From: an uncultured Chloroflexia bacterium
GTDB lineage: Bacteria; Chloroflexota; UBA5177
Direction: 5' to 3'
Assembly (NCBI GenBank): GCA_963737125.1
Contig: CAVTRL010000005.1
Span: 38,870-102,869 of the forward strand
Length of the DNA stretch: 64,000 bases
The position numbers and the translations under genes are program-made. Below the pieces are notes generated by a model that saw nothing but the letters and a program-made list of their open reading frames with translations, was not told the origin of the DNA and ran no database searches. Shown here piece by piece: positions 56,582-60,762 of the stretch. The stretch's first letter is position 1. Each line of letters opens with the position of its first letter.

Positions 56582-57160
56582 TCAGACTGGCGACTCCTCG
56601 TCAAAGTCCTCACGCCGCCGGGTTAGCATGGCCTCGACCGAGATCGCGCCAGGCCCCAGCCACAGGATGCAGGCGGCCGCACCGGCCAGCAGGACATCAC
56701 GTATAACGTCCCACCATCCAACCGTATTGCCACCGGCCAGGAACGACAGAATCACGTTCCCGTTGCCGGCGCCGCCAAAACACCCACAGGGATGCGACGT
56801 GTTCCCGGTAAGGAGGGCATCGACCAATGCCACCAAAAACGTACTGAGGAGGATCAATGACCCGAGGGCGCCAATACGGCTCATGAATCCGCTGACCAGG
56901 TACAGGCCCACCAACAACTCCAGCCAGGGCACGACAAAGGCGAAAGGCAACACCAGATTGGGCGGCAGGATATGGAACGCGCGCACCGCGTCGGCGAACG
57001 ATCCGGGCGACTGAATCTTGGAAACACTTGCCAGCAGGAAAATGCCTCCCACCAGCAGTCGAGCCACCAGCAGCCCAACCGACCTTCCATCTACGGTGTC
57101 GGACTCGACAATCTCCGAGCGCCGTCCGCCGGCCACAGCCCGCTCACTCTCGGGGGACAC
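56582..57160 (-). CDS. MauE/DoxX family redox-associated membrane protein
   Basis: ASVSK, PWLEL, CGCFG, RD. Confidence 0.85.
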   Translation of the reverse strand: MSPESERAVAGGRRSEIVESDTVDGRSVGLLVARLLVGGIFLLASVSKIQSPGSFADAVRAFHILPPNLVLPFAFVVPWLELLVGLYLVSGFMSRIGALGSLILLSTFLVALVDALLTGNTSHPCGCFGGAGNGNVILSFLAGGNTVGWWDVIRDVLLAGAAACILWLGPGAISVEAMLTRRREDFDEESPV

Positions 57161-57219: not shown

Positions 57220-57969
57220 CTAAGTGCCATGTACGGCGAGCGCCTTGTTCAACTGCGCAGCCAGCGTACTGTAACTTTCATGATTGTCCGCCGCATACCC
57301 GATCTTGCCGTTCGGGTCGATTACGTACAGACCGGGGTATCCCGTTATTCCGTACTTGTTCACCGTGCCGAATTGCGGGTCGATGAGTTGAGGATGCTGG
57401 ACGTTGAAGGTCTTCGCGAACCAGGAGAGATCGCTTAGCGTCGCGAGGGACAGATCCGTGCGTCCGCTATTGTCATAGTTGCGAGCGTATGGGTTTGAGA
57501 GTATCGACCAGACTCGCACGCCTTTCGGCGTGAAGTCTTTGGTGACCTGTGCCATGATCGGCGCCTCTCCCTGGCAAATCGGACACCATACGGCGAAGAA
57601 CTCGAGCAATACCGGATGCCCACGCTGAGCGGCAAGCTGGTGGACCGTGCCGCTCGTATCTTTAAGAGAAAAATCGGGGGCAACGCTCCCCACCGGGAGA
57701 AGCTGAGGGTTGGGATTGAGAGCGTTCGGATTGGCCAGCGCTGCCGGCGTGGCCGCGACACTCATGGAGCGATACACGGCCCATGCGACGATGGCCAGGA
57801 CGACCAGAACGGTTGTTATGGCACCGATGATATTGAGCTGAGAAAACCGTTGACGCGATGACGCACGCTGCCGGGACCGGGACGTAGGCTTACGAGAGCC
57901 ATCACGCCGTTGTGCAGCGCGCTGCTTGTTGAGCGAGCCCGCTGCCTTTCCAGAATTTTTTGTTGCCAT
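57220..57969 (-). CDS. Membrane-anchored TlpA/ResA-like thioredoxin
   Basis: Basic N-terminus plus TM, APDFSL, FFAVWCPIC, YP, IDPNGKI. Confidence 0.88.
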   Translation of the reverse strand: MATKNSGKAAGSLNKQRAAQRRDGSRKPTSRSRQRASSRQRFSQLNIIGAITTVLVVLAIVAWAVYRSMSVAATPAALANPNALNPNPQLLPVGSVAPDFSLKDTSGTVHQLAAQRGHPVLLEFFAVWCPICQGEAPIMAQVTKDFTPKGVRVWSILSNPYARNYDNSGRTDLSLATLSDLSWFAKTFNVQHPQLIDPQFGTVNKYGITGYPGLYVIDPNGKIGYAADNHESYSTLAAQLNKALAVHGT

Positions 57970-57979
57970 GGTAGTGAAT

Positions 57980-58118
57980 TCCTTTCGTACCGGAGTATCC
58001 ATCGAGGTTTGCGCTGTCCCGGCAGGAAAAGAGGATGGACCGGTGGCGTGCACATCACCGTAGATTGGGACGCTGCCATCAGCGCGGATAAGAAATCCGC
58101 ACAGTTCTTTCCTACCGG
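57980..58118 (-). promoter_or_regulatory. Putative translational attenuator (A:B versus B:C pairing over the RBS)
   Basis: A CCGGTAGGAAAG (58118-58107) and C CCGGTACGAAAGGA (57993-57980, includes SD) are both complementary to B TCTTTTCCTGCCGG (58032-58019). Confidence 0.55.
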
Positions 58119-58129
58119 CGCTTCACTGT

Positions 58130-58933
58130 TTACCGAGCCGCGAGACGCGGGTGAAGGTTGGCGGCCGGTGGAGGCGGTGAGCGCAGACCGAAGGCTCCGG
58201 CACGAATGCGAAGGATGGGAACAGAGTGGCGCGAGGGTATGACACGCGGTCCAACCTCTGGCGCCCGTTCGAAGAGTGAAGCCAGAATCTGGGCGATACG
58301 ATCGGTGCGCCGCGAGCGCCCGAGCAATCCCGCAAAGGTCCACAACATGAACGATCCGATGAATCCGGCCGCCATATGCAGCGGAATGACGGTCAAGTGC
58401 TGCGGCGCGAACAGTACTGCCAGGCCTGGCAAGAAGCTCAAGCTCACCAGGTCTTCCAGGTTCTCCTGCAAGAGATACAGTGAAATTTGCAGAACGCCCA
58501 ATGACAGCGCGGTAATGGCGATGGATCGGAGCGGCACAGCAACCGGCCGCGCGTCGAGGTATCGGCGGCAACGAGCCGGCAGGCGCTCTCTCACCCGCTT
58601 GACTCGAACGTGGTCCGCGCCTAGAACCGAGAGAAGCGCGGCGACGGCAAGCAGCGCGCCAACCGCCAGCAATGCGCCAAGCGGCGCCATGTAGAAGCGG
58701 TGCGGCGTGGTTGCCATGACCGCCTGGAAGCGGCTCCCGTACTCGATCGTATATTCCGTCTGGTGCACGATCCAGGTACCGGCCAGCACGGTGAACCCGA
58801 ACGCCAGCAAATTGATCCAGGCGCGTCCGTAGGTCTGCCAGCCGGCAAACGACGGTACGCTCGACCGGATGAATCGACGCGGCGACGGCTCGGCCCGACG
58901 TGAAGCGGTTAGCTGGTTCGGCAGGGTGTCCAT
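58130..58933 (-). CDS. Multi-TM hypothetical protein with C-terminal RSPP motif
   Basis: About four hydrophobic helices with H/E residues (HQTEY, PH, QENLE, PLH); LRSPPPP near the C-terminus. Confidence 0.7.
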   Translation of the reverse strand: MDTLPNQLTASRRAEPSPRRFIRSSVPSFAGWQTYGRAWINLLAFGFTVLAGTWIVHQTEYTIEYGSRFQAVMATTPHRFYMAPLGALLAVGALLAVAALLSVLGADHVRVKRVRERLPARCRRYLDARPVAVPLRSIAITALSLGVLQISLYLLQENLEDLVSLSFLPGLAVLFAPQHLTVIPLHMAAGFIGSFMLWTFAGLLGRSRRTDRIAQILASLFERAPEVGPRVIPSRHSVPILRIRAGAFGLRSPPPPAANLHPRLAAR

Positions 58934-58994
58934 GCCAAATTATACGTCCGTCCAGTCGAGACGCGGTCGCGCCGGAGCGGCCGGAAATGAAGCG

Positions 58995-59756
58995 TTACGC
59001 GACCGCCCGATTAAATGCTCTCGCCCCGATGGTCATACCGATAATCGCGAGAGCCGCCATGATGACCAGCCCTTTGACCACTGCCACGTCACCCGAATTG
59101 CCGTTGAACATATCGCGTGCCGCCTCGACGGCGTACGACAGCGGGTTGAAGTCGGCGATGGTTTGCAGCCAGGCCGGCGCCAGGGTAAGCGGCAACAGCA
59201 CTCCGGACAGAAGCAACAAGGGAAGGCTAAGGGTGAAAATCAGTGGAGCGTACGAGTCCTCCGACCGGAGAGCAAGCGCCGCTGCGTACGCCAGGGATGC
59301 CATGCCAAGTCCGATCAGGGCCACCAGCCCAACCATGACCAGCACGCCCGATACTGTCGCATGCAGGCCAAACGGAATGGAAAGGAGTAGCAGGACAACA
59401 GACTGGATGATGAGTACCAGAATATCCCGCAGCGCCCGGCCGAGCAGCAACGCGAAACGACTCACCGGCGTTACCCGGAACCTCTCGATCACTCCGGCTC
59501 GCAGCTCAGCGATGAGACCAAACCCGACGCCACTGGCGCCAAAGAGCCCCAGTTGAATCAGCAAGCCGGGTACAAAGACGTTGTATGCACCGCCGGGAGG
59601 GAAGCCGCGAGACGATGCAATCCCCTTCAGGAGCGGCGCGAACAGCAACAGGTAGAGAATCGGTTGAATGAGACCGATAATCACCCAGGCCGGGTTGCCC
59701 AGAAAAATCCCGACGTACCGGCTGAATACCAGCCAGGTATCTCGCAATAGTTTCAT
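58995..59756 (-). CDS. ABC-2 type permease (DrrB-like)
   Basis: QPILYLLLF, VPG, GVIERFRVTP, LSG...P, NPLSY. Confidence 0.9.
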   Translation of the reverse strand: MKLLRDTWLVFSRYVGIFLGNPAWVIIGLIQPILYLLLFAPLLKGIASSRGFPPGGAYNVFVPGLLIQLGLFGASGVGFGLIAELRAGVIERFRVTPVSRFALLLGRALRDILVLIIQSVVLLLLSIPFGLHATVSGVLVMVGLVALIGLGMASLAYAAALALRSEDSYAPLIFTLSLPLLLLSGVLLPLTLAPAWLQTIADFNPLSYAVEAARDMFNGNSGDVAVVKGLVIMAALAIIGMTIGARAFNRAVA

Positions 59757-59763
59757 CCGCGCC

Positions 59764-60762
59764 TCAGCTTGCTTCCCGGAGCGAGCGCCCCGTCTGGCGT
59801 AGGAAGACGTCATCGAGGCTGGGGCGAGCCATCGACAAGGAGGAAAGCTCGATGCCGGCCGAGTCAAGCTGCCGTAGGATCACCGGCATGACTGTCTCAC
59901 CGCGATCGACATAGAGGTGCAACGCATCTTCTTCGTCGGTGATCTCGCGCACGAAGGTCTGACCGCGCAGCAGTTCAAGCGCCTTCGCGCGATTTTCTTT
60001 GATCCCGAGCACCACGACATCCCCCGCGACCTGCCGTTTCAGTTCGTCTGGCGTTCCGCCCGCCACGATGCGTCCATGGTCGATGATCGCGAGACGGTCG
60101 CACAGTGCGTCCGCTTCTTCCAGATAGTGGGTGGTCAGGAAAATGGTCGTGCCGCCGTCACGGAGCCGGCGCACCTCGTCCCACATCCGAGCCCGACTTT
60201 GTGGATCCAGGCCGGTGGTTGGTTCATCAAGAAATAAGAGTGAGGGTAGATGCATGAGCCCGATCCCGATATCGAGCCGGCGCTTCTGGCCACCGGAATA
60301 GGTCTTGGTGCGTCGATCACCGCAATCCGCAAGGTCGAGCGTGTCCAGCAACTCGGCGGCACGCTGTTTGGCTTGCTGTGCGTTCATGCCGTACAGCCGT
60401 CCCTGGAGCACGAGCTCAGTGCGCCCCGTGACCTCCAGATAGCTGCTCCCGACCTGGCTCACGTAGCCGATGCGCTCCCGCACTCTGGCCGGTTCCTTTA
60501 CCAGATCCGCTCCTGCCACCGTTGCCTCGCCGCCACTCGGAGGTAGTAGTGTGGAAAGCATCCGTAGCGTCGTCGTCTTACCAGCGCCATTCGGCCCGAG
60601 AAAGCCGAAAATCTGTCCGGCGTGGACCTCGAGATCCACGCCGTCGACGGCGACGACCTCTGACTTTCGGCTCTTGAAGACACGTCGAAGTCCACGCGTC
60701 TTGATGACCACGGATGCCACCGACGTATCGGCGGAGACGGGAAGGTTAGTGATACGCGCCAT
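59764..60762 (-). CDS. ABC transporter ATP-binding protein (DrrA-like)
   Basis: GPNGAGKTT, YSGGQ, LFLDEPT, TTHY, SLDDVF. Confidence 0.93.
   Translation of the reverse strand: MARITNLPVSADTSVASVVIKTRGLRRVFKSRKSEVVAVDGVDLEVHAGQIFGFLGPNGAGKTTTLRMLSTLLPPSGGEATVAGADLVKEPARVRERIGYVSQVGSSYLEVTGRTELVLQGRLYGMNAQQAKQRAAELLDTLDLADCGDRRTKTYSGGQKRRLDIGIGLMHLPSLLFLDEPTTGLDPQSRARMWDEVRRLRDGGTTIFLTTHYLEEADALCDRLAIIDHGRIVAGGTPDELKRQVAGDVVVLGIKENRAKALELLRGQTFVREITDEEDALHLYVDRGETVMPVILRQLDSAGIELSSLSMARPSLDDVFLRQTGRSLREAS

Follow-up and report, generated by a model that had tools for sequence, protein, structure and literature searches.

Gene X, located at 58130..58933 on the minus strand of the window (the whole stretch of 64,000 nucleotides that was analysed), probably encodes a four-helix RxPP arrest protein with an outward-facing His/Glu/Gln cluster, in which the length of a ribosomal stall sets the expression of the downstream genes; we hold this view with moderate confidence. 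X would then probably act as a built-in sensor for the thiol-redox genes that follow it. The argument is built on the motif, on its conservation and fixed spacing, on a topology prediction, on gene contexts and on predicted RNA pairings. A first-pass annotation of the same DNA had proposed an arrest membrane protein that senses membrane insertion or metal status and is coupled to a three-segment RNA switch. The arrest idea is well supported by inference from the motif, its spacing, the disordered tail, the copper context and the literature, whereas the switch did not stand up. The annotation had also called the sensor undescribed, which was overstated, since CruR (2022) and the four-TM RAPP/RGPP proteins of S. 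lividans (2025) are of the same kind; the kind of system is thus not new.

Gene X and its protein family

X is a membrane protein of 267 amino acids, whose gene ends with a TAA stop codon at 58132-58130. Sequence searches yielded 42 homologs and 293 representative clusters at 50% identity, which belong to the Chloroflexota, Dormibacterota and Actinomycetota. The family is unnamed: X matched nothing in Pfam and NCBIfam (0 Pfam families at E <= 0.01), and likewise its relatives P0107, P0129 and P0018 matched 0 Pfam families at E <= 0.01. No earlier account of the family was found in the literature, and the gene lists of PMC12992588 might include its RAPP members. The AF2 model of X (pLDDT 84) contains long helices at residues 35-75, 78-117, 135-165 and 182-221, which together with the hydropathy segments give four predicted helices upstream of the RSPP motif. 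A Foldseek search of this model against the PDB returned a best E of 0.43, and the best hits of a wide VIA-align search were generic helical bundles with a Z of 6.6, which is below the meaningful level for helical proteins. The nearest clusters in the ESM Atlas are unnamed hypothetical proteins from Chloroflexota, Dormibacterota and Actinomycetota and serve as leads only.

Two homolog alignments contain the invariant motif Q156-E-N-L-E160 (58454..58468, minus strand), which lies at the outer end of helix 3. Together with H57, H78, H179 and H186, QENxE makes up a conserved polar cluster of invariant columns, which is predicted to face outward based on the distribution of charges: the loops 62-84 and 156-184 contain two and zero Lys and Arg residues, respectively, compared to 6, 9 and 10 in the other three segments. 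The conserved His, Glu and Gln residues are hence found in K/R-poor loops, and the N-terminus, the middle loop and the tail are K/R-rich. No Cys is present in the invariant or nearly invariant alignment columns of the family. As a full protein of about 250 amino acids with conserved residues, X probably has a function of its own and is not a mere leader peptide.

The C-terminal RxPP motif

The putative arrest core of X, R251-S-P-P-P-P256, is encoded by the codons CGC UCA CCG CCU CCA CCG (58166..58183, minus strand); RSPP occupies residues 251-254 of 267, and 13 codons separate it from the TAA, exactly as the first-pass annotation had described. Its expectation that RxPP is conserved among homologs was borne out as well. 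No substitution of L250, R251, P253 or P254 occurs in any of the 26 aligned homologs, and RxPP is found within the last 30 amino acids of 160 of the 163 full-length representatives (at least 200 amino acids), which were taken from 185 proteins consisting of the 42 homologs and new cluster representatives. Judged by these alignments, the conservation of RSPP is far beyond chance. Cores of the tier-1 proteins are RSPP (57), RAPP (27) and RGPP (2), those of the tier-2 proteins RPPP (47), RAPP (16), RRPP (9) and RGPP (2), and only S, A, G, P and R occur at the middle position across the family. R[SA]PP lies 1-13 residues from the stop in all 23 tier-1 loci with a complete 3' end; the other 4 of the 27 tier-1 loci run off their contig. 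In 67 of 86 tier-1 relatives, three residues follow PP up to the C-terminus, and the closest homologs, P0001-P0003 and P0005, share the long tail of X. The Arg codon varies synonymously (CGC in 9, CGG in 6, AGG in 2 and CGA in 1 of 18 loci), which argues for selection on the amino acid.

Helix 4 and the motif are connected by a cytoplasmic linker (residues 209-250; 58184..58309, minus strand), whose sequence is poorly conserved, whereas its length is fixed. For 76 of 87 tier-1 proteins, QENxE and the Arg of the motif are spaced 95 residues apart; in tier 2 the median spacing is again 95 (IQR 93-96, n=71). In the AF2 model, the block pLDDT is 93 for residues 211-220 and drops to 68, 55 and 51 in the blocks from residue 221 onwards, and the linker and tail are predicted to be disordered on the basis of these values of about 50-68.

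A screen of the window's genome, G000, which covered uncurated ORFs of at least 60 amino acids, returned 103 ORFs with R[AGSP]PP at most 15 amino acids from the end. Five of them possess a hydrophobic segment (KD >= 1.6), and the top three of these are the X paralogs.

Gene context of X and its relatives

The stop codon of X is followed on the same strand, after 160 nt, by a gene for a TlpA/ResA-like membrane-anchored oxidoreductase with a thioredoxin fold and a WCPIC motif (57220..57969, minus strand; AhpC-TSA 8e-20, Redoxin 2e-13); its product matches the ResA subfamily with 1e-18, which is under the family cut-off. Next comes a gene for a membrane protein of the MauE/DoxX family (56582..57160, minus strand; MauE 5e-24). 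Most relatives of X are found together with copper genes. CopC, CopCD or a cupredoxin is encoded downstream on the same strand in 11 of 16 distinct tier-1 loci, counting only those with at least 300 nt of downstream sequence. A same-strand CopC or CopCD gene is present in 35 of 50 tier-2 loci, which came from a search with 12 aligned sequences, in 34 of them about 700-990 nt downstream, and one of the 50 loci encodes a Cu-type P-type ATPase. The three X paralogs of G000 head a tlpA-mauE, a copC-copCD and a cupredoxin-BNR cluster. In the related loci, tlpA-mauE directly 3' of X is confined to the window's genome, the contexts of P0001-P0003 and P0005 lying outside this comparison; the synteny with tlpA and mauE that had been anticipated among relatives was thus not observed.

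Comparison with known arrest systems

RxPP sequences with G, A, S or P as x stall ribosomes (PMC12992588, PMC9426467), and the same set emerged from arrest screens in E. coli (PMC12992588). RSPP is described there as partially permissive for arrest in mutants of ApdA and ApdP. X fits the RAPP-like class in that its core is close to the C-terminus, the Arg and Pro residues are conserved, TM segments lie upstream and a gene on the same strand follows. The match concerns the core and not the arrest-enhancing sequence N-terminal to it, and the stall in X is regarded as putative.

CruR, which is encoded at the head of Cu operons, carries RAPP three residues from its end and has a spacer that is conserved (PMC9426467); CruR of Bordetella pertussis, a DUF2946 protein, arrests ribosomes in vitro (PMC12992588), and its motif is required for downstream expression. 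CruR and the X family are alike in that an exported or membrane protein heads a copper operon, which applies to most X relatives, and in typical X members RxPP is likewise placed three residues short of the C-terminus and at a fixed spacing from putative metal ligands. However, X shows no sequence relationship to CruR and no match to Pfam DUF2946. X has four TM helices with His/Glu/Gln ligands and no conserved CXXC, whereas CruR has a signal peptide and a CXXC about 45 residues before RAPP; the corresponding spacer in X measures about 65 residues from the last His and 95 from QENxE. The cores also differ, RSPP/RPPP in the X family and RAPP in CruR. CruR acts through Rho; a search for the Rho RNA-binding domain, PF07497, gave no hit in G000 at its completeness of 91.5%.

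A second comparison can be made with SLIV_18480 and SLIV_27375 of S. lividans, which are likened to X by their description in PMC12992588: both are four-TM proteins with a C-terminal RAPP or RGPP and stall Bs and Sl ribosomes in vitro. One of them has three conserved His residues plus a Met and a metal-related downstream gene, and the other is located upstream of a gene for a thioredoxin-domain protein. X differs from these proteins by the lack of a conserved Cys pair, and no Streptomyces records are among the 50 tier-2 loci, which were fetched by one peptide pattern. The screen in PMC12992588 took RAPP and RGPP only and would therefore miss the RSPP/RPPP majority of the X family.

In the SecM-secA system, only a few codons separate the arrest motif from the stop, and the Shine-Dalgarno sequence (SD) of the next gene is part of a stem that is opened by the stalled ribosome (PMC10987492). 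The canonical X relatives share this layout, with Pro-Pro-Leu codons serving as anti-SD. SecM has the core RAGP and monitors Sec; X has a different core and is not a secreted Sec monitor. In the window, the SD is paired in the free mRNA as in secM-secA, but the anti-SD lies behind the stall site and not under it. For ApdA and ApdP too, the core is R-x-P-P, and the A site holds Pro-tRNA (PMC7897499, PMC10951233; mutational data in PMC12992588); unlike X, they are described as short monitoring substrates upstream of secDF without a conserved body.

A C-terminal RxPP could also act at the protein level, for instance as a docking, proteolysis or sorting signal, and play no translational role, in which case the downstream genes would simply be operon partners. 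X has the size of a complete membrane protein, is modelled well and contains putative metal ligands that are conserved, and the association of the family with copper genes is what would be expected of a structural component of the pathway. However, RxPP matches ribosome-stalling sequences that are otherwise depleted from proteomes (PMC12992588), and in 67 of 86 tier-1 proteins it leaves three residues to the stop, as is seen in SecM and CruR. The restriction of the middle residue to five amino acids, the linker that is kept in length and not in sequence, and the predicted disorder of the tail likewise speak against a protein-level signal, which we regard as improbable, and the reading of RxPP as an arrest motif is preferred here.

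If stalling is confirmed, the sensing of metals by arrest peptides would be extended to the Chloroflexota and Dormibacterota and to RSPP and RPPP cores, which are absent from the published RAPP/RGPP screens, and a sizeable unnamed family of 293 clusters at 50% identity would be defined. The TlpA/MauE thiol-redox pair of the window's genome would be linked to the regulation of copper clusters. In addition, the family would provide a 'ruler' of natural origin, measurable from a membrane helix to the stall site, which suits a question raised in PMC12992588, namely where the force that releases the stall comes from in arrest peptides without a relation to the Sec pathway.

Predicted RNA pairing in the canonical relatives

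In the canonical relatives, whose motif is followed by a three-residue tail and a UGA stop codon, the Ser-Pro-Pro-Leu codons (UCU CCU CCU CUC) are predicted to pair with the downstream SD (GAGAGGA), so that a stalled ribosome would be positioned directly on the anti-SD. Pairing of the Pro-Pro-Leu codons with the SD is part of the minimum free energy (MFE) structure in 6 of 13 folded loci, and Pro-Pro-Leu/Val codons under the stall footprint are the partner of the SD in L018, L014, L019, L023, L021, L012, L026 and L017. For ten loci, 79% of the scored cells pair compared to 33-52% in slid controls, and the covariation score is 0.216 versus 0.145 in shuffles, of which 1 in 500 reaches the observed value. 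The covariation of the Pro-Pro-Leu:SD pairing in the canonical relatives is modest. CCU is the first Pro codon in 14 of 18 loci, and CCU usage in G000 is 11%. When the stall footprint was blocked, SD accessibility was clearly raised in only 6-7 of 13 tier-1 loci; a ribosome at the stop codon raised it about as well as a stalled one in this set of 13. In a duplex-rank test, ranks of <=0.1 were obtained for 7 of 13 tier-1 loci. The tier-2 loci did not differ from chance, with ranks of <=0.05 for 2 of 48 and a median of 0.40, indicating that pairing between the SD and the arrest codons is not a feature of the wider family. Moreover, proline codons resemble anti-SD sequences by nature, and some pairing with the SD is therefore expected without selection.

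Predicted RNA structure in the window

Three short segments of the X-tlpA spacer (minus strand), which had been pointed out in the first-pass annotation, are present: segment A, GCCGGUAGGAAA (58119-58108), starts 11 nt past the stop codon of X; segment B, UUUUCCUGCCGG (58030-58019), pairs with A; and segment C, UCCGGUACGAAAGG (57994-57981), holds the tlpA SD (AAAGGA) 9 nt before the ATG at 57969. A and C are alike in 11 of 12 bases. The computed A:B helix consists of 11 contiguous pairs including one G.U, or 12 if a second G.U is added by hand; B:C can reach 11 of 12 pairs, the remaining position being a C.C mismatch. A:B is present in the MFE structure, accounts for 10.8 expected pairs in the ensemble and encloses, as had been reported, three hairpins, two of which are weak. 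The strong one, GCGGAU-UUCUU-AUCCGC (58084..58100, minus strand), has no U run after it on this strand.

From these segments, it had been deduced that a terminating ribosome masks A so that B:C hides the SD, and that a stall at RSPP allows A:B to form, thereby exposing the SD. The segments do exist as described and A:B does form, but the predicted partner of the SD region is a fourth segment, B' (UCCUU ... UUCGUGCCGGAGCC; 58193..58215, minus strand), which is located within the coding region of X and was found in both the MFE structure and the ensemble. In the free mRNA, C engages B' at 58206-58195 with 10.7 expected pairs. B:C has about 0 expected pairs in the free, stalled, at-stop and A-blocked states, C being paired with B' also when A is blocked, and B:C reaches 8.8 expected pairs only once the whole coding region to 58120 is blocked. 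Nor would a ribosome at the stop codon mask A, as it protects the mRNA to about 58120 and the first base of A is 58119. The single base that distinguishes A from C (G/C) is matched by a complementary change between B and B'; the helices A:B and B':C are thus perfect, whereas B:C and B':A each contain one mismatch, which argues against B:C as the selected pairing. The region 57960-58135 on its own folds with a z of -1.03 (29 of 200 shuffles are as stable), whereas the fold extended to 58215 reaches a z of -3.00 (0 of 200 shuffles as good), a gain that is due to B'. No other locus carries the segments, although their conservation had been expected. Taken together, the two-state switch appears very improbable.

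The tlpA SD (CGAAAGG) has a modelled unpaired probability of 0.15 in the free mRNA, i.e., it is 85% paired, of 0.15 with one stalled ribosome and of 0.40 with a second, queued ribosome, while under a narrower definition of the SD (-14..-6) it is already 0.58 unpaired. Counted from the P site of an RSPP-stalled ribosome, B' is 16-38 nt behind and hence outside the footprint of one ribosome. An Rfam 15 scan of 57500-59200 gave 0 matches at E <= 10, and the spacer between X and tlpA has no other copy in G000. The covariance model R1 was also tried on the window; its weak match (24 bits, E 0.0024) falls mostly over the coding motif and therefore provides no evidence for the canonical structure at this site.

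Proposed mechanism of regulation

From these observations, we infer a course of events that includes stalling, release by membrane insertion or metal, and a direction of regulation. If the CruR toeprint (section 14 of PMC12992588) is taken as a guide, Pro253 would occupy the P site and Pro254 the A site of the stalled ribosome. At this point, helix 4 (residues 182-221, with a hydrophobic core that ends at about 208, before R209) would just have left the exit tunnel, with about 45 residues of unstructured linker between it and the peptidyl-transferase centre. The chain would be pulled, and the stall thereby released, when helix 4 inserts and packs on helices 1-3, and a metal held by the His cluster, most likely copper, may be needed for this packing. 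The duration of the stall would then determine the expression level of the next gene on the same mRNA. In the window, where the SD is predicted to be sequestered by 58215-58193, opening would require translating or queued (collided) ribosomes.

These elements can be joined into one scheme, which we put forward as a tentative and rather doubtful possibility. Copper bound to the outward-facing His/Glu/Gln cluster would decide on the docking of helix 4 during its exit from the ribosome, and the fixed tether of about 45 residues would convert docking into a pull on the RxPP-stalled chain. The canonical arrest codons (UCU CCU CCU CUC) would double as anti-SD, so that one short stretch would encode both stall and switch. 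For the window and L013, the position of the anti-SD is that expected of a second, collided ribosome, and the output might therefore depend on disome formation.

Transcription of tlpA-mauE

The tlpA-mauE pair might have its own promoter within the 160-nt spacer, and the RNA structure would then be a 5'-UTR or mRNA-stability element that is unrelated to the translation of X. TlpA orthologs in four other genomes (G002, G003, G005 and G007) have other upstream neighbours and unrelated leaders and must therefore possess their own signals, and the spacer is long compared to the 57-90 nt between stop codon and next gene in ten folded canonical relatives with a three-residue tail. However, a simple scan detected no sigma-70-like site in 57800-59100, with the proviso that promoters of Chloroflexota may differ, and no terminator was found between X and tlpA on the minus strand. 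Furthermore, the most stable structure needs the coding segment of X (z of -3.00 versus -1.03), which argues for a transcript spanning both genes. A separate tlpA promoter hence seems unlikely to us, and we favour a joint transcript on which a stall in X would act on tlpA. A TATAAT hexamer (58939..58944, minus strand) ends 6 nt before the ATG of X; it was missed by the simple scan because of the lack of a -35 match and, from its sequence, could serve as the promoter for a leaderless X-tlpA-mauE transcript.

The membrane protein X and its family

X, a 267-aa membrane protein, is encoded on the minus strand at 58130..58933 and ends in ...AFGLRSPPPPAANLHPRLAAR; its RSPPPP codons lie at 58183-58166 (-), with 13 codons between RSPP and the stop codon. 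Further along this strand follow segment A (GCCGGUAGGAAA, 58119-58108), which starts 11 nt past the X stop codon, segment B (58030-58019), which is complementary to A and to C, and segment C (57994-57981), which has 11/12 bases in common with A and holds the Shine-Dalgarno (SD) site of a tlpA-like gene (ATG 57969 (-)). All of these features had been described in the first-pass annotation and were confirmed, as was the A:B helix of the minimum-energy fold, inside which three smaller hairpins form. A TATAAT hexamer (58939-58944 (-)) stops 6 nt short of the X start codon (ATG), suggesting that the transcript is leaderless. Similar hexamers are found 7-8 nt before the X start in two homologous loci (TACAAT in L017, TAGACT in L016); other loci have a -10-like hexamer around 30 nt upstream of the start instead. 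The genes that immediately precede X on its strand, at a distance of 61 nt, encode a DrrA-like ABC ATPase together with an ABC-2 permease (58995-60762 (-)); in the other fetched loci this pair is not seen next to X, the one exception being an opposite-strand match to the ATPase in L013, which is weak (34% identity).

X has no match in Pfam or NCBIfam. A word-indexed search returned 42 homologs, the named ones of which are Chloroflexota metagenome-assembled genomes (MAGs), and 1.84 billion representatives searched with a profile yielded 293 clusters at E <= 1e-3, 64 of them at <= 1e-30. Distant members (E 1e-17 to 1e-8) come from Dormibacterota, Acidimicrobiales, other Actinomycetota and Chloroflexota MAGs. 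X matches were found in 8/41 related genomes, all in one family (7/11 genomes, the window's own genome, G000, not counted); this tally takes in the unpublished G004, whose locus L007 has the same tail as the public record L017, and L017 was used. G000 itself encodes three paralogs, in the window, at C1:1887629-1888381(+) and at C4:250618-251316(-). Judged by these searches, X is a member of a large unnamed protein family.

An AlphaFold2 model based on a 26-sequence alignment (pLDDT 84, pTM 0.74) consists of four long helices (35-75, 78-117, 135-165 and 182-221) and a low-confidence tail from around residue 221; two fold searches with this model gave no meaningful match. Lysine and arginine residues number 6 in the N-terminus, 9 in the 106-134 loop and 10 in the tail; by these counts, all three are predicted to be cytoplasmic. 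In this topology, the conserved polar residues W54, H57, Q58, Y61, H78, Q156-E-N-x-E160, H179 and H186 sit in outer loops poor in lysine and arginine.

Conservation of the RxPP motif and its spacing

L250, R251, P253 and P254 are invariant in all 26 aligned homologs, and R[S/A]PP is located 1-13 residues before the stop codon in 23/23 fetched loci of closer family members (tier 1) with a complete 3' end. The first-pass annotation had called for a homolog alignment to look for a conserved R-x-PP. Among the full-length proteins (>=200 aa) of a set of 185, RxPP is present in the last 30 aa of 86/88 tier-1 proteins (57 RSPP, 27 RAPP, 2 RGPP; of the two proteins lacking it, one is truncated at ...LRSP) and of 74/75 more distant, tier-2 proteins (47 RPPP, 16 RAPP, 9 RRPP, 2 RGPP), where it is usually embedded in W-x-RPPP. 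Exactly three residues follow PP in 67/86 tier-1 proteins. In 18 distinct loci, the arginine is encoded by CGC, CGG, AGG or CGA and the second residue by six different serine or alanine codons; selection therefore acts on the peptide.

The position of the motif relative to the membrane domain is also conserved. The distance from the invariant QENxE to the arginine is 95 residues in 76/87 tier-1 proteins (range 89-96), with a median of 95 (IQR 93-96) in 71 tier-2 proteins, and the second histidine of HxxxxxxH precedes the arginine by 65 residues in 71/77 tier-1 proteins. The intervening linker is weakly conserved in sequence and predicted to be disordered. Such a tether of fixed length and unconserved sequence is the pattern that a force-transmitting spacer would show.

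Comparison with published arrest systems

RAPP-like motifs are reported to be depleted from proteomes, RSPP being one of the most under-represented tetrapeptides, and ApdA/ApdP variants with RSPP keep part of their arrest (PMC12992588). According to the same source, which cites Tanner 2009 and Woolstenhulme 2013, RxPP with G, A, S or P as x was recovered in E. coli arrest screens. It also describes C-terminal RAPP/RGPP motifs in small membrane or secretory proteins upstream of YcnI, PCuAC, TonB-receptor, DsbA and thioredoxin-domain genes. Seven S. lividans proteins stall B. subtilis and S. lividans ribosomes, among them a four-TM protein (three conserved histidines and a methionine) that precedes a metal gene and a second four-TM protein that precedes a thioredoxin-domain gene (PMC12992588). 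In Bordetella CruR, the RAPP motif is 3 residues away from the end and is preceded by CXXC 45 residues upstream, a conserved spacing that resembles the fixed QENxE-to-arginine distance of the X family; RAPP is needed for downstream expression under copper scarcity, and the output runs via Rho (PMC9426467). Natural uORFs with RSPP cluster with RAPP ones, and an SD-masking stem opened by arrest has been described (PMC10987492).

The comparative evidence supports well that X is a putative stalling protein acting as an arrest sensor. The first-pass annotation had regarded such a sensor as undescribed; because CruR, the S. lividans proteins and RSPP uORFs are already in print, the kind of system that X would match is one published in 2022-2025. 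Literature searches turned up no description of the X family, most of whose members carry RSPP or RPPP; its RAPP members may figure in the supplements of PMC12992588. A control search located the Rho RNA-binding domain (PF07497) in 9/14 reference genomes; it was not found in the 91.5% complete G000 assembly, which mildly favours a translational over a CruR-like, Rho-dependent output.

RNA structure around the tlpA SD sequence

The first-pass annotation had proposed a two-state switch, in which a ribosome at the stop codon masks A and allows B:C to close the SD, whereas a stall at RSPP frees A to pair with B. Folding of 58270-57935, in which the nucleotides under a ribosome were kept from pairing (stalled at RSPP, 58192-58162; at the stop codon, 58150-58120), does not support this switch, since C pairs with a coding segment within X, B' (UUCGUGCCGGAG, 58206-58195 (-)), both in free mRNA and with a ribosome at either position, and A is left uncovered at the stop codon. 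In free mRNA, A:B has 10.8 expected pairs, C:B' 10.7 and B:C 0.0; the pairing is the same with a ribosome at either position or with A fully blocked, and B:C reaches 8.8 pairs solely when all coding sequence is blocked. Since a ribosome's footprint extends to around +15 nt relative to the P site, one that terminates at the X stop codon would reach ~58120 and leave A, which begins at 58119, uncovered. A and C differ by a G/C exchange and B and B' by the complementary one, so that the cognate helices are perfect and each cross pair has one mismatch. UCCUU (58215-58211) additionally pairs with AAGGA of the SD.

Taken alone, the stretch proposed for the switch is not more stable than shuffled sequences (z = -1.03); with B' included (57960-58215), the minimum free energy is -97 kcal/mol versus a shuffle mean of -82 (z = -3.00; 0/200 shuffles as good). 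The sequence supports a stable nested structure that would keep the SD paired to a coding segment close behind the putative stall site. The predicted probability that the SD is unpaired is 0.15 in free mRNA, with one stalled ribosome and with a ribosome at the stop codon, and 0.40 with a queued second ribosome; B' lies where translating or collided ribosomes, not the lead stalled one, would cover it. On this modelling, SD sequestration via B' should replace the A/B/C switch, and its link to putative stalling is uncertain. The spacer is unique in G000 and has no Rfam match, no predicted minus-strand terminator and no predicted promoter, the separate tlpA promoter weighed in the first-pass annotation as evidence against its switch included.

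Relatives were folded from 30 nt before the arginine codon to 20 nt beyond the next start codon. In the minimum-energy folds of L018, L014, L019, L023, L021 and L012, and by inspection in L026, the Ser/Pro-Pro-Leu codons (CCUCCUCUC) pair with the downstream SD (GAGAGGA), enclosing a hairpin with the UGA stop codon in its 5' arm (CCUGAAC...GUUCAGG) and a second G+C-rich hairpin. These loci have differing downstream genes (cupredoxin or CopC), and in L017 CCUCCCGUAG pairs with UUACGGGGG in the identical register using other bases. With 10 loci aligned by MAFFT, pairing is seen in 79.1% of cells, compared with 33-52% for slid partners; covariation scores 0.216 versus 0.145 in shuffles (reached by 1/500), and 8 pairs are changed on both sides versus 5.1 in shuffles (37/500). 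It counts against this codon-SD pairing that proline codons resemble an anti-SD sequence in any case. CCU is the first proline codon in 14/18 loci and the second in 11/18, compared with 11% of proline codons in long ORFs of G000, a comparison weakened by kinship among the loci and by the use of a single genome. Further results also count against the codon-SD pairing. A duplex-rank test in 13 tier-1 loci gave <=0.1 in 7 and >=0.2 in 6, and was at chance in tier 2. Blocking the stall footprint clearly raised SD accessibility in 6-7/13 loci; a ribosome at the stop codon was about equal.

Gene neighbourhoods

Copper genes are found downstream of X homologs; CopC, cupredoxin, a BNR/Ycf48-like lipoprotein, a CopC-CopD-YtkA fusion and Peripla_BP_6 were confirmed by Pfam in representative loci. 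In tblastn searches with a Pfam-confirmed protein panel, CopC, CopCD or cupredoxin follows on the same strand in 11 of the 16 distinct tier-1 loci with >=300 nt downstream, the binding protein alone in three, and in one a convergent TlpA-MauE pair comes after an unknown 458-aa membrane protein. The tlpA/mauE synteny that the first-pass annotation had suggested checking is seen in the last of these 16 loci, the window, where tlpA-mauE lies directly downstream; TlpA-MauE pairs in four other genomes of the family have unrelated upstream regions. In tier 2, same-strand CopC/CopCD occurs in 35/50 loci, ~700-990 nt downstream in 34, and a heavy-metal P-type ATPase in one.

Between the tier-2 RPPP membrane protein and CopC/CopCD lies an unnamed secreted protein of ~220-240 aa (L038:3225-3896, L045:3263-3991, L074:3314-3967 and about 30 other loci), which has a mature N-terminus like AHExRxVGxYxLxVGWxxEP and no Pfam match, and which may be an undescribed copper-binding protein. 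A membrane protein of ~458 aa (N-terminus ...FGKRYxLPxPLxLFVxGG; no Pfam or NCBIfam match) adjoins X in two genera (L013:668-2044(+), L017:5980-7287(+)).

Of the two other G000 paralogs (loci L009 on C1 and L012 on C4), one heads copC and copC-copD, the other a cupredoxin lipoprotein and a BNR/Ycf48-like lipoprotein; three copies of the putative sensor therefore precede three different modules in one genome. In L012 (oriented 2270-2344), a 24-codon ORF (MTRRLAAAFYDG...stop) occupies the position of the relatives' cupredoxin start (MTRRFAA...), and the cupredoxin ORF restarts 75 nt after that position, which may reflect a frameshift, a misassembly or remodelling of the start.
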